Positions 42,278 through 45,978 of a DNA stretch of 64,000 nucleotides are shown here, piece after piece. Under the pieces are notes generated by a model. That model did not search any database, was not told the origin of the DNA, and was given only the letters and a program-made list of their open reading frames with translations. Within the stretch, counting starts at the first letter, position 1; every line of letters begins with the position of its first letter. Source of the DNA: a phage. Both the position numbers and the translations under genes were made by a program. The DNA is taken from the sequence record PX969468.1. One strand, given 5' to 3'.

Positions 42278-42628
42278 ATGAAAGATGAGGATAAGCTGCT
42301 ATATCTTAAAGTCCCCCTTGAAATACTGTCTATGTCAAAAGTTTTGAATGGCACAACTGGGGAGGTTGTTGTTCTTGACTTATATGACAAGATCGTATAC
42401 TGCTACCTGCACAACTGGTATAAGCTTGGAGAAAATTCACGCTTCACACCCAGCACCAGGAAAATTGCAGCAGATGTTGGGATAAAGAAAACAAAAGCAG
42501 CAGCGTGCGTTAAAACTTTAGAATGTGCAGGAGTGGTTGAAATATCCACACAAGGGAGAGGTAAAAGATGCACATTTTCCAAAGTTTTGCCACCAGAAGA
42601 AGTTATTCGAATGTCAACAACTGGTTAG
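42278..42628 (+). CDS. helix-turn-helix DNA-binding protein (putative regulator or initiator)
   Basis: HTH-like segment RKIAADVGIKKTKAAACVKTLECAGVV; directly upstream of the iteron array. Confidence 0.45.
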   Translation: MKDEDKLLYLKVPLEILSMSKVLNGTTGEVVVLDLYDKIVYCYLHNWYKLGENSRFTPSTRKIAADVGIKKTKAAACVKTLECAGVVEISTQGRGKRCTFSKVLPPEEVIRMSTTG

Positions 42629-42700
42629 ACCAGTAAAAACTTAAACATCTGTACTATAAGGATTTGTATGTTTTATGTTCACTCTGGAGCAGAAGTTAGT

Positions 42701-42785
42701 AACTGTCCGTGATACGGACACTACTGTCCGTCACGCGGACACATCTGCCCGTAATACGGACACTAACTGTCCGTGATACGGACAC
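42701..42785 (+). repeat. Four tandem 21-bp direct repeats, each with a 15-bp palindrome GTCCGT-N3-ACGGAC (iteron/operator array)
   Basis: Repeat cores at 42705-42719, 42726-42740, 42747-42761 and 42769-42783; 21-bp period. Confidence 0.7.
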
Positions 42786-42925
42786 ATAAAGAATATAACT
42801 AAAATAACTAAATAATAAAAAATAAAAGATCTAGTACTTATGGTACTAAAGTACATATACTTAACTTATGTAGAATATACTAGATCCTAAGTACCATGTT
42901 TTAAATTTATTACTTATTATGGGTA
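42786..42925 (+). other. AT-rich block with a 9-bp inverted repeat (GATCTAGTA ... TACTAGATC); possible DNA-unwinding element
   Basis: Strongly AT-rich by eye, directly after the iterons. Confidence 0.5.
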
Positions 42926-43160
42926 GTGTCGGCCCTTCATTGGCACTCGCCTACGAGGGGCGAGATGCCGGGCCTCCATAGTGCACACAATAACAGAAGT
43001 GCATACATGCAGGACTGTTAACATGTGTGGGAACGAAGCGATAGCGCAGGCCAAAGGCCGAGCACTAATGTGGACCACCGACGAAAGCTTGCCAGCGCCG
43101 GAAGGAGTCGGTTGAGAGCCTCCCGCGCGAGTTCGGATAAAGTTTATGTGTGGAAACTGA
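42926..43160 (+). other. GC-rich ORF-free segment; candidate structured non-coding RNA
   Basis: No ORF of 60 aa or more in any frame between 42628 and 43290; abrupt rise in GC; multiple stem-forming segments. Confidence 0.35.
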
Positions 43161-43289
43161 CAAGAAGGACCCTAAATCGCTCCACAGCTATATAAACTAT
43201 ACCAAGTAAGGCAATCGCACCAGTTTGATAGAAAAGCTCGTTACAAAGCGATACAGTGAGTTTTTCTATAACTTGAAGAGGAGGCTGCT

Positions 43290-43868
43290 ATGAGTTCACG
43301 CAAAGATGCCAGTGAAAAGATTGCAAAACGTTATCAGAATGAAGAACAGATGGAGAAAACTTTCAAGTGGAAGCCAGGTTTCCAGCGTAATCATTCTAAC
43401 GCTCGTGATCGTAAGCATCCTGATAAGTGGCTAACACCGCCAAATGATGGCATGCAGGTTGGTGATGAGAAGGAGCTATCACCTGGAAAAGATGGCAACT
43501 ACATTCGCACTAAGGACGCTAGTCCAAAGGATGACAGCTATCTTGTAGATAAGGTTCTTAATGGTATTGATGTAGATGTTGACACTACACGGAACTTTTT
43601 TCTTGGGTGGTATCGCACAGGTTTTTTCGACATCAAGGCCATTCGTCGTGTTTGTGATATTAAAAAGTCTGCATATGATGACGACTCGTTACATCGCACA
43701 CTGAGACAATATTCAGAAAGATATGGTCATCCGGTTATCACTCTTGACGATGTTAACGAAGTGATGTATCATGCAGAGGTTGTTGCAGGCAGATTTGGTG
43801 ATGCATATCTTGATATCCTTTCTGCAAACGATGAGGTAATGTTGAATAAGATTTACTACGAACGTTGA
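43290..43868 (+). CDS. hypothetical protein
   Basis: Track ORF; GAGGAGG RBS. Confidence 0.55.
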   Translation: MSSRKDASEKIAKRYQNEEQMEKTFKWKPGFQRNHSNARDRKHPDKWLTPPNDGMQVGDEKELSPGKDGNYIRTKDASPKDDSYLVDKVLNGIDVDVDTTRNFFLGWYRTGFFDIKAIRRVCDIKKSAYDDDSLHRTLRQYSERYGHPVITLDDVNEVMYHAEVVAGRFGDAYLDILSANDEVMLNKIYYER

Positions 43869-44399: not shown

Positions 44400-44720
44400 T
44401 ATCATGATGAATATCCAATTTAAAGATGAGTTTGATGGCTTTATCTCCGGATGCTTTGAAACAGGGTTCGGAGAAGGCTGAGTTACCCTTAGAGGGCTTG
44501 ATAGTGCACCACACTTAAAATGGTAGGGGCAGCCAGCACATGACGATGTGACCCCAGCCAACCTGTAATAAGGTCGAGCCAGAGCGCGGTAATGGGTATC
44601 TGGTAACCCACTCGTTGGGTCTTGTTGGTCCAGGACGCTGGGCAAGTCGCAGGGAACACCACCCTGCGGCGAACTTGACAATCAGTATTTGCCGTGATAA
44701 AATCCACCTATCACGTGATA
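44400..44720 (+). other. GC-rich segment upstream of the tRNA cluster; candidate stable structured RNA
   Basis: Only mutually overlapping ORFs on both strands; GC-rich with hairpins such as CAGGG-aacaccac-CCCTG. Confidence 0.35.
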
Positions 44721-45166: not shown

Positions 45167-45241
45167 GCCCTGTTAGCTTAGTGGATAAAGCAGCGGCCTT
45201 CTAAGCCGTTGACACTGGTTCGAGTCCAGTACGGGGTGCCA
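45167..45241 (+). tRNA. tRNA-Arg (anticodon TCT)
   Basis: Cloverleaf folded by eye: 7-bp acceptor stem, D-arm GCTT/AAGC, anticodon loop CTTCTAA, T-arm ACTGG-TTCGAGT-CCAGT, encoded CCA. Confidence 0.75.
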
Positions 45242-45245
45242 AATT

Positions 45246-45332
45246 GGGGAGTTATCCCGTAGAGGTAGCGGTGTAGACTGTAAATCTATTGTCATTGCGA
45301 CTCGGGTGGTTCGACTCCACCACTCCCCACCA
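45246..45332 (+). tRNA. tRNA-Tyr (anticodon GTA), type II with long variable arm
   Basis: Acceptor GGGGAGT/ACTCCCC, anticodon loop CTGTAAA, T-arm GGTGG-TTCGACT-CCACC, CCA. Confidence 0.75.
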
Positions 45333-45446
45333 AATTTATATTTTTAAATGCATAAATCATACAGATAATGACATTGATATTTATCGTCGTTTATACTAGT
45401 CACTAACTGCTCGAAAATCAGTGTCATTATCAGTGTAATTTATAAA

Positions 45447-45537
45447 GGAGGGTAGGGAGCAATGGTGCTCAAGCGGTCTTGAAAACCGTCCCGTTGAGGA
45501 TGACTCGATGATGGTTCGATTCCATTACTCTCCGCCA
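45447..45537 (+). tRNA. tRNA-Ser (anticodon TGA), type II
   Basis: Acceptor GGAGGGT/ACTCTCC, anticodon loop CTTGAAA, long variable arm, T-loop TTCGATT, CCA. Confidence 0.65.
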
Positions 45538-45635
45538 CATTGTTGACCTTGTAATTAAGCGAAAGCCGGAAGCAGAACCGGATTATCAAATGTTACAGTC
45601 GTCATCGCCGACTAGCCACATGGTCAACATATTGC

Positions 45636-45734
45636 GCTAGGTAAGCCCTTTGGCAAGGGCGAGGATTTTTAATCCTGAAAATAGACGAGGTAGTCGTTGA
45701 ATACATAGGTGGTTCGATTCCATCACCTAGCACC
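45636..45734 (+). tRNA. atypical tRNA-like gene (about 99 nt; Lys TTT-like anticodon loop; about 29-nt extra region); possible pseudogene
   Basis: Perfect 7-bp acceptor (GCTAGGT/ACCTAGC), D-arm, T-arm GGTGG-TTCGATT-CCATC, anticodon loop TTTTTAA with a 4-bp stem; insertion too long for a canonical type I tRNA; no full CCA. Confidence 0.35.
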
Positions 45735-45738
45735 TTTT

Positions 45739-45814
45739 GCTGATGTAGCACAATTGGCAGTGCAATTGATTTGTAATCAATAGGTTGCAGGTTCAAGTCC
45801 TGCCATCAGCACCA
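45739..45814 (+). tRNA. tRNA-Thr (anticodon TGT)
   Basis: Acceptor GCTGATG/CATCAGC, D-arm GCAC/GTGC, anticodon stem ATTGA/TCAAT, loop TTTGTAA, T-arm GCAGG-TTCAAGT-CCTGC, CCA. Confidence 0.8.
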
Positions 45815-45815
45815 T

Positions 45816-45890
45816 GGCCCTGTAGCTGGAAGGTTCAAGCAAGCGACTCATAATCGCCAGACGGTGGTTCAATTCCACCCAGGGCCACCA
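45816..45890 (+). tRNA. tRNA-Met or Ile2 (anticodon CAT)
   Basis: Acceptor GGCCCTG/CAGGGCC, anticodon loop CTCATAA, T-arm GGTGG-TTCAATT-CCACC, CCA; G1-C72 argues against initiator. Confidence 0.7.
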
Positions 45891-45901
45891 AATAATAAAT
45901 A

Positions 45902-45978
45902 CTCCGCGTAGCTCAGCTTGGTAGAGCGCCTGATTTGGGATCAGGAGGTCGAGTGTTCGAATCACTCCGTGGAGACCA
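45902..45978 (+). tRNA. tRNA-Pro (anticodon TGG)
   Basis: C1-G72 acceptor, D-arm GCTCAGCTTGGTAGAGC, anticodon stem CCTGA/TCAGG, loop TTTGGGA, T-arm GAGTG-TTCGAAT-CACTC, CCA. Confidence 0.8.

Follow-up and report, generated by a model that had tools for sequence, protein, structure and literature searches.

In the replication origin of phage lambda, an AT-rich tract adjoins four iterons of dyad symmetry. No lambda-type origin is known to require an adjoining 200-nt GC-rich structured element. A related arrangement was found in an rV5-like coliphage, a myovirus of the genus Vequintavirus, from which a stretch of 64,000 nucleotides (sequence record PX969468.1; referred to below as the window) was analyzed. 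As in ori lambda and related iteron origins, an AT-rich tract, here directly 5' of a folded element, is preceded by four phased dyad repeats, and a winged-helix protein that may be an initiator is encoded beside them; plasmids that carry the same element encode O-like/HTH_36 Rep proteins and have iterons 23 bp apart. In contrast to ori lambda, the repeats of the phage lie outside the gene, the protein has only 116 aa and no helicase-recruiting domain, and the likeness is one of layout. The origin could not be placed in the paper on rV5, and a literature search for the Vequintavirus transcriptome, origin, sRNA or satellites yielded nothing relevant.

The element extends from about 42927 to 43135 on the plus strand (about 210 nt) and is the best-conserved non-coding feature near this origin-like module. 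It is a genuine, conserved, base-paired non-coding element, most likely an RNA, and it probably constitutes a new RNA family that is absent from Rfam and missed by current libraries. Phages of the rV5 type are widely isolated and have been used in E. coli O157 typing and in therapy trials.

Extent and distribution of the element

The segment from 42926 to 43160 (235 nt) had a GC content of 56.2%, compared with a window mean of 42.8% (S.D. 3.5% for 235-nt windows). A value of at least 56.2% was reached by 0.02% of all 235-nt windows, the maximum being 56.6%. No ORF of 60 aa or more overlapped positions 42629-43289 in any frame; the longest ORF in this gap comprised 56 aa (43025-43195, plus strand) and the second longest 53 aa (42917-43078, minus strand), both with a GTG start. 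The original prediction of a GC-rich, ORF-free segment of about 235 nt was thus confirmed, as was the presence of a 14-mer, CCGGGCCTCCATAG, which occurred a single time at 42968-42981. The boundaries given there need shifting, since alignment with divergent relatives placed a sharp left edge of conservation at about 42927, at GTCGGCCC, and the structured core ended at about 43135.

The element was present in all 119 Vequintavirus records found, and 701 bases around it matched at 90-99% identity. The most distant phage relative, the IMG/VR contig L003, was unrelated upstream of the element and alignable from GTCGGCCC onward. Identity to L003 was 93% in the 5' hairpin, 74% in the middle part, and 91% in the 3' core. 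It was 61% in the poorly conserved spacer at 43136-43205 (plus strand), against 91-93% in the flanking blocks, and 90.5% in the block before the ATG of the adjacent 192-aa gene. The gene itself reached 82.7%, so that the element (93% and 91%) is better kept than its coding neighbor; the block before the ATG likewise exceeded the coding sequence. Eighteen records labeled as “Campylobacter phage” (MG0656xx, UNVERIFIED) are rV5-like coliphage genomes by sequence, and the host named in them is probably incorrect.

When collections of viral, metagenome, and genome sequences were scanned for exact patterns, rV5-like contigs alone were returned; five matches in genome contigs of Bradyrhizobium and other non-enteric bacteria were discarded, as they showed no extension past 20-24 nt. 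In two further genera of the Vequintavirinae (Hena1 and LNA4) the corresponding regions lacked the element and differed in synteny. On contig L026, a homologue of the 192-aa protein with 50% identity is preceded by a 60-nt gap and no element. Because the element is absent from the two other genera and the 192-aa family occurs elsewhere without the leader, these comparisons indicate that it is genus-specific and not a gene-specific riboswitch.

Homologues were found in unannotated DNA of small circular E. coli plasmids from complete genomes (NZ_CP020521, NZ_CP035869, NZ_CP178698, and NZ_CP043822), with a further copy in CP148565 from PLSDB. The plasmid loci compared were L019/L021 (NZ_CP020521.1), L020, L023, L024, L025, and L033-L036. 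These plasmids of about 13.5 kb each contain 2.4-2.9 kb of non-coding DNA. They encode an HK97-like capsid protein, whose cluster comprises 441 members from 13.4-14.3-kb contigs, a Dit-like protein and a neck protein that are 57 and 48% identical, respectively, to proteins of this phage, a tape measure protein, and an O-like/HTH_36 Rep protein matching “replication initiation O-like.” A terminase was neither annotated nor present among the family-assigned plasmid proteins. Comparison of a plasmid with the complete genome of an rV5-like phage revealed non-coding similarity in the 5' hairpin and the core only. Judged by these sequences, the plasmids look like hitherto undescribed plasmid-borne satellites of rV5-like phages; if so, the element would be a direct handle on the exploitation of a lytic myovirus. 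No paper on these plasmids or their accessions was found in the literature. On a 30-kb contig (L036; NTNY01000053.1) the plasmid copy was linked to cargo that included a transposase and genes for aminoglycoside phosphotransferase; the plasmid replicon can therefore form cointegrates carrying resistance genes.

Fold, strand, and non-coding character

The 5' hairpin domain (42931-42974, plus strand) is a bulged structure of 15 pairs. It is built from an outer stem GGCCC/GGGCC (42931-35 with 42970-74), a stem GGCA/UGCC (42942-45 with 42966-69), and a stem CUCGCC/GGCGAG (42946-51 with 42959-64), all on the plus strand; the bulges, six nucleotides UUCAUU and an A at 42965, are kept. All 15 pairs were 100% paired across eight distinct sequences, compared with 35-48% in slid controls, and the plasmid homologue showed two double changes from G-C to U-A. 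The minimum free energy (MFE) of the hairpin was -28.1 kcal/mol (z = -3.85). It is followed by a variable middle hairpin (ACAG.../...CUGU, 42983-43021, plus strand; defined from the alignment, with indels), which is dispensable because 18 nt of it are deleted in the phages Murica, MaxTheCat, and A147. The flanking CACACA (42984-89) can pair with UGUGUG (43024-29) and does so in the MFE structure predicted for the full segment; alternatively, UGUGUG can pair with the downstream CGCGCG. The motif UGUGUGG(G) was over-represented in the window, with 17 copies compared with 4.9 expected.

The 3' core (43022-43135, plus strand) is a multi-helix domain in the RNAalifold consensus. Its G-U-rich closing helix H1, UGUGUGGGA/UCCCGCGC, joins 43025-33 with 43120-28 on the plus strand; in L003 one of its G-C pairs has become G-U. 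Helix Pb (GGCC with GG-A-CC, 43056-59 with 43072-76, plus strand) showed one compensatory change from C-G to A-U, in phage EduardKellenberger and hence within the phage lineage. Helix H2 (ACCGAC/GUCGGU, 43077-82 with 43107-12, plus strand) reads GCUGCC with GGCAGC in the plasmids, three of six pairs being changed on both sides, and contains a G-U pair in phage Aya and in L003. In the core helices, 97.7% of cells were paired, against 31-45% in slid controls. A covariance model of the core (R1) found exactly one copy per genome, with scores of 104-140 bits. For a sequence of its composition, the core was of average stability (plus strand, z = -0.5; minus strand, z = -1.1), and thermodynamic z-scores did not separate the strands.

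H2 closes a 24-nt loop, GAAAGCUUGCCAGCGCCG(G/U)AAGGA (43083-43106, plus strand), of which 23 nucleotides are invariant. The loop was identical in 12 sequences, plasmids included, apart from one position, and the variable base gives GGAA or GUAA, so that a GNRA-type tetraloop is kept. It is unaltered although half of its closing helix (three of six pairs of H2) has been replaced. No complement of 11 nt or more to the loop was present elsewhere in one complete rV5-like genome. The invariance of the loop on a co-varying stem and its lack of a complement in the phage genome suggest that phage and plasmid have one partner in common, either a protein or a host factor. Overall, six pairs in three helices showed compensatory changes (two in the 5' hairpin, three in H2, and one in Pb), in an alignment whose effective diversity is about three lineages (phage, L003, and plasmids), so that pair counts are not independent events. 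The element combines conserved, compensated helices with a lack of coding signal, as is generally expected of structured non-coding RNAs.

In the plasmids, the core terminates an array located 3' of plasmid-specific iterons and consisting of one to several hairpin cassettes with UGUGUGG(G) between them. Six of the 12 cassette pairs were compensatory, pairing was 100%, and several cassettes have C-UUCG-G loops. In L033, L034, and L035 the frame UGUGUGGG ... AAUGUGGAG ... UUCCGCGCG is kept, with the single-base variants AAUGUGAAG and UUCUGCGCG in L035; the 24-nt loop is missing, and a UCCGGAU/AUCCGGA helix with another loop of 18 nt takes the place of H2. No phage with this alternative terminal unit was found. 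The iterons vary between plasmids, apparently together with the Rep allele. The same iterons occur with different terminal units (L025 compared with L033, L034, and L035), and the rV5-type core is common to plasmids with different iterons; hence the core does not depend on the specificity of the initiator. Every plasmid also contained a C-rich and then a G-rich block (CCCCCCTAACCCCCCAGGGGGAATGGGGAGGG...GTGGGG) between the iterons and the hairpin array, e.g. at 2780-2830 of L025, which with its four G-runs could form a G-quadruplex or an R-loop.

The wobble pairs (U-G in H1 and the A-to-G changes in H2 of Aya and L003), which amount to few events, fit the plus strand only. H1 was present in the MFE and centroid folds of the plus strand and absent from those of the minus strand, and in phage and plasmids alike the flanking operons have the plus strand as their sense strand. 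Watson-Crick compensation would also be compatible with hairpins in single-stranded DNA or with cruciforms. From the RNA-type loops, GGAA/GUAA at the GNRA position and C-UUCG-G in the plasmid cassettes, we infer an RNA and not a single-stranded DNA. No strong match to a sigma-70 promoter was found in the AT-rich spacer at 42786-42925, and the promoter table of the rV5 paper lists none directly upstream of the element, the nearest being P081 ahead of the kinase gene. A search for a terminator after the element found none, in agreement with the table in that paper. Thus, neither a convincing upstream promoter nor a terminator points to an independent transcript.

Some BASEL phage records annotate “hypothetical proteins” of 31 and 56 aa in the element, and the corresponding ORFs (42926-43021 and 43025-43195) are annotated in EduardKellenberger and related records. 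It is very improbable that these are small protein-coding genes. Both ORFs have a GTG start. The 192-aa gene, which served as a control, had 36/21/88 variable columns at the three codon positions, whereas the three plus strand candidate ORFs gave 14/20/16 (the 56-aa ORF), 8/7/6 (the 31-aa ORF), and 11/8/8, and the minus strand candidate gave 9/13/10; the excess of third-position substitutions was absent. The frames are shifted by 1-nt indels inside the element, one in MaxTheCat and one in L003, and L003 has another 1-nt and a 3-nt insertion where the core begins. The 31-aa ORF annotated in EduardKellenberger is missing from the annotation of MaxTheCat, a record with the 18-nt deletion, and the plasmid homologue keeps the helices and not the reading frames. 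Given the lack of codon periodicity and the frame-breaking indels, the 31-aa and 56-aa annotations are therefore unlikely to be genes, and the element corrects the database records that contain them.

The segment was also compared with the 4227 covariance models of Rfam 15. The original prediction had proposed a structured non-coding RNA, which is supported by the conservation, the non-coding character, and the three helices with compensatory changes. It had further likened the 14-mer to the P4 region of RNase P RNA, and this lead failed: at gathering thresholds there was no match to any family anywhere in the segment, including the bacterial RNase P, group I intron, and tmRNA models that had been named for the check. 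A permissive scan (42600-43320, E ≤ 10) gave no match to RNase P, tmRNA, group I intron, or SRP RNA and yielded three weak, chance-level matches (rli43, mir-154, and rliB), of which rli43 scored 24.6 bits, compared with a gathering score of 100, mostly across the AT-rich spacer. The plasmid homologues matched nothing in Rfam at E ≤ 1, RNase P included. ARAGORN detected no tmRNA, and its sole calls were seven tRNAs at 45167-45978. A group I intron was discarded, as there was no Rfam match and the element is intergenic and not inside a gene.

The resemblance that had pointed to bacterial RNase P RNA (RF00010/RF00011) covers 13 of 14 nucleotides of the P4 5' strand and concerns the stretch CCGGGCUCCAUAG of E. 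coli M1 RNA; genes for tRNAs and RNA repair are also close by. In the element, the first half of CCGGGCCTCCATAG (42968-42981, plus strand), CCGGGCC, lies within the 3' strands of two 5' hairpin stems (UGCC and GGGCC), where it pairs locally and has no P4-like pseudoknot placement or P4 partner strand. The second half, CCAUAG, belongs to a variable linker and reads CUCUUUGG (CUUUGG) in phage pangalan, CCCUAG in L012, and CCUGUG in the plasmid homologue, so that the motif is not conserved. With about 210 nt, the element is also far below the size of a bacterial RNase P RNA, and neither the phage nor the plasmid copies matched a covariance model. As far as sequence and structure models reach, the RNase P reading is refuted, and there is hardly any chance that the element is another known stable RNA (tmRNA, group I intron, SRP RNA, or 6S). 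Likenesses seen by eye to E. coli 4.5S/SRP domain IV (CCGGAAGGA...), to the type I-E CRISPR repeat (CCCGCGC...GGATAAA), and to a T-loop (UUCAAUG) were dropped, as the homologues do not keep them, and an anti-Shine-Dalgarno pairing of the 5' hairpin with the ribosome-binding site of the 192-aa gene is broken in L003.

Neighboring modules and possible function

Upstream of the element, an RNA ligase gene on the opposite strand is followed by genes for a polynucleotide kinase-like ATPase, a phosphoesterase, and the 116-aa winged-helix protein (42278-42628, plus strand; Pfam HTH_36, E = 1.5e-5, and DUF6945, E = 2.9e-6). In public records this protein is named “transcriptional regulator” or “replication initiation protein.” It matched phrog_12838, “replication initiation protein,” with E = 2e-77 and, more weakly, the N-terminal parts of longer initiators. 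Its top PDB relative was 4ro3, an uncharacterized wHTH protein. The protein consists of the winged helix alone, and its resemblance to repressors is equally weak. The gene is followed by four direct repeats of 21-22 bp (family D1; 42700-42785; spacing 21/21/22 bp), each containing the dyad TGTCCGTnnnACGGACA, which are iteron- or operator-like. Within the window, good matches to the dyad (0-1 mismatch) are confined to these four copies at 42700-42785, and four further matches have 2-3 mismatches. Between the repeats and the element lies an AT-rich spacer of 140 bp (42786-42925) with inverted repeats I7 and I10 inside. A phased repeat array with an adjoining AT-rich region (22-28% GC compared with the window mean of 43%) is thus present, as in iteron origins. 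In L003 the 116-aa protein is replaced by a different HTH protein of 143 aa, and L003 and each plasmid have different repeats with 21-23 bp spacing at the equivalent position. L003 also contains about 160 nt of unrelated sequence (2400-2560) with hairpin-like segments and a GGTGTTCAAGTTC string, which separates the repeats of L003 from the A-rich tract in front of the element.

Downstream of the core, the spacer at 43136-43205 contains a second UGUGUGGA (43147-54) and CUAAAUCGC (43172-80), a motif that recurs downstream of the plasmid copies. The conserved block from 43206 to 43289 (plus strand), which the RNAalifold consensus includes, ends at the ATG at 43290 and forms a 12-bp hairpin (43228-39 with 43258-69; inverted repeat I9) just 5' of the Shine-Dalgarno sequence that serves the 192-aa gene. 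Probably this block is an element in its own right, with a leader or translational role, and it may be a translational operator. The 192-aa protein (43290-43868, plus strand; phrog_12226), the product of the first downstream gene, had no match in Pfam, PDB, or NCBIfam, and its AlphaFold model (pLDDT 51) was too poor for use.

Several further features of the window were recorded. A GC-rich stretch (50-58%) at 44482-44675, non-coding according to the deposited annotations, had a fold z-score of -1.1. It lies just 5' of a strong sigma-70-like promoter, TTGACAATCAGTATTTGCCGTGATAAAAT (44675-44703), and contains a 10-mer, TAATGGGTAT, that is common to position 271 of the window and to two sites in the plasmid non-coding region. 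At 45636-45734 an odd tRNA-like gene of 97-99 nt was assigned a four-base anticodon by ARAGORN and scored 35.5 bits in Rfam; public records list it as tRNA-OTHER or tRNA-Lys. Positions 1-1400 (ORF-poor to about 2300) form a large, partly GC-rich region with no convincing ORFs, where two early transcription units diverge, and are probably the “non-coding” box of the rV5 paper. On the plus strand of this region CTCTTCAGG occurs five times (561, 644, 679, 1092, and 1740) and TGTGTGGG at 109, 572, 1357, and 1771. One repeat copy reads GCGCTCTTCAGG, which is boxA-like, and the string GCCTCTTCAGGCAAT is common to the plasmids.

We favor, with a probability of about 0.5, the reading that the element is a docking RNA for a trans-acting factor, a structured element outside Rfam that acts in cis or after processing. 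It would be transcribed rightward with its operon (Pnk, phosphoesterase, HTH gene, element, 192-aa gene) and would fold into the stable bulged 5' hairpin, the dispensable middle hairpin, and a 3' domain closed by UGUGUGGGA/UCCCGCGC that presents the 24-nt loop. The loop, and probably the bulged 5' hairpin as well, would serve as the docking site for a factor that is most likely a host or phage protein. The RNA would act either in cis, on the transcript or replicon that contains it, or once processed, and the capsid-encoding plasmids would carry the element to engage the same factor. The invariant loop on its co-varying stem suggests that such a factor may bind the element. The constancy of the loop, the covariation of the stems, and the naturally occurring loop swaps make the element well suited for genetics.

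Other functions were weighed against a docking RNA. We consider it possible, with clearly less confidence, that the element is a recognition module shared by helper and satellite, in RNA or single-stranded DNA form, on which one machine acts in both, such as a priming, packaging, or transcription-control factor, the exchangeable loop setting the partner. Rather unlikely is a role as a component of a replication origin, i.e. as a place for priming or replisome loading beside the lambda-ori-like module. It could then provide a primer or activator transcript, as ColE1 RNA II or T4 oriF do, or single-stranded DNA hairpins of the ssi/sso type, and the plasmids would retain it to share the replication machinery. 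The position of the element 3' of iteron-like repeats in the phage, L003, and the plasmids, whose repeats and initiator-like proteins differ, fits such a role, as do the intervening AT-rich spacer, which is clear in the phage and L003, and the HTH_36 domain, which also occurs in the plasmid Rep proteins with “replication initiation O-like” matches. The four dyad repeats and the AT-rich tract correspond to the ori lambda layout. However, the core is independent of the iteron type, the G-T pairs of H1 would be weak in DNA, and the 116-aa protein, a bare winged helix, and its four dyad repeats could equally be a repressor with four operators. Weak additional points for an origin are the left edge of the element, GTGTC in the phage and L019 or GGGTC in L003, which are T7-type primase recognition sequences, and the gp4-like primase-helicase encoded by rV5; the turns in GC skew, however, follow only the direction of transcription.

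A packaging site (pac) that plasmids without a recognizable terminase copied from their helper is improbable. Compensation in the stems would be unexpected at a double-stranded site read by the small terminase subunit, and strand-specific wobble pairs would be meaningless in duplex DNA. The element is the only non-coding segment common to both genomes in the whole-genome comparison, and the plasmids combine capsid, neck, Dit-like, and tape measure proteins with the lack of an annotated or family-assigned terminase, which would suit a pac site. The record start points of rV5-like genomes vary widely, as expected of permuted, headful-packaged DNA, but the terminase gene is about 5.5 kb away from the element, and the rV5-type loop is missing in three plasmids.

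Comparison with known systems

The likeness of the element to known systems is partial in each case. Like ColE1 RNA II and the T4 oriF/oriG primers, in which the fold of a structured transcript beside the unwinding region decides priming, it lies next to a potential unwinding region, and this phage encodes RNase H; unlike them, it has no sequence or Rfam similarity to these RNAs and no antisense partner was seen. The sso signals of rolling-circle plasmids and the ssi and G4/phiX-type complementary-strand origins are likewise strand-specific, strongly folded non-coding cassettes (150-300 nt) located near origins, and they pass from one replicon to another. However, they act as single-stranded DNA, whereas the abundant G-U pairs in H1 and the loops of the UUCG and GNRA types in the element better suit an RNA, and the replicons here are of the iteron/theta type.

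The plasmid arrays, with hairpin cassettes in variable number punctuated by single-stranded UGUGUGG(G), recall the sponge sRNAs CsrB and RsmZ. In contrast to these, the repeated motif is UGUGUGG(G) and not GGA, it lies outside the hairpin loops, and the phage has only two or three copies. In the CI RNA of satellite P4 (seqA/seqB/seqC), repeats in a satellite leader are able to pair with one complement in the same transcript, and a candidate for such pairing here is UGUGUGGG with CCCACA or CCCGCGCG; there is no sequence similarity, however, and the RNA of P4 is not common to its helper.

Compared with HK022 put (about 70 nt, two hairpins) and lambda nut boxA/boxB (about 35 nt), the element is considerably larger (about 210 nt), and neither downstream terminators nor an N-like protein were identified at this locus. 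It shares with them bulged hairpins near the start of an early operon. HK022 put and lambda nut act on RNA polymerase, and a conserved host machine of this kind would account for the presence of one invariant loop in both phage and plasmids.
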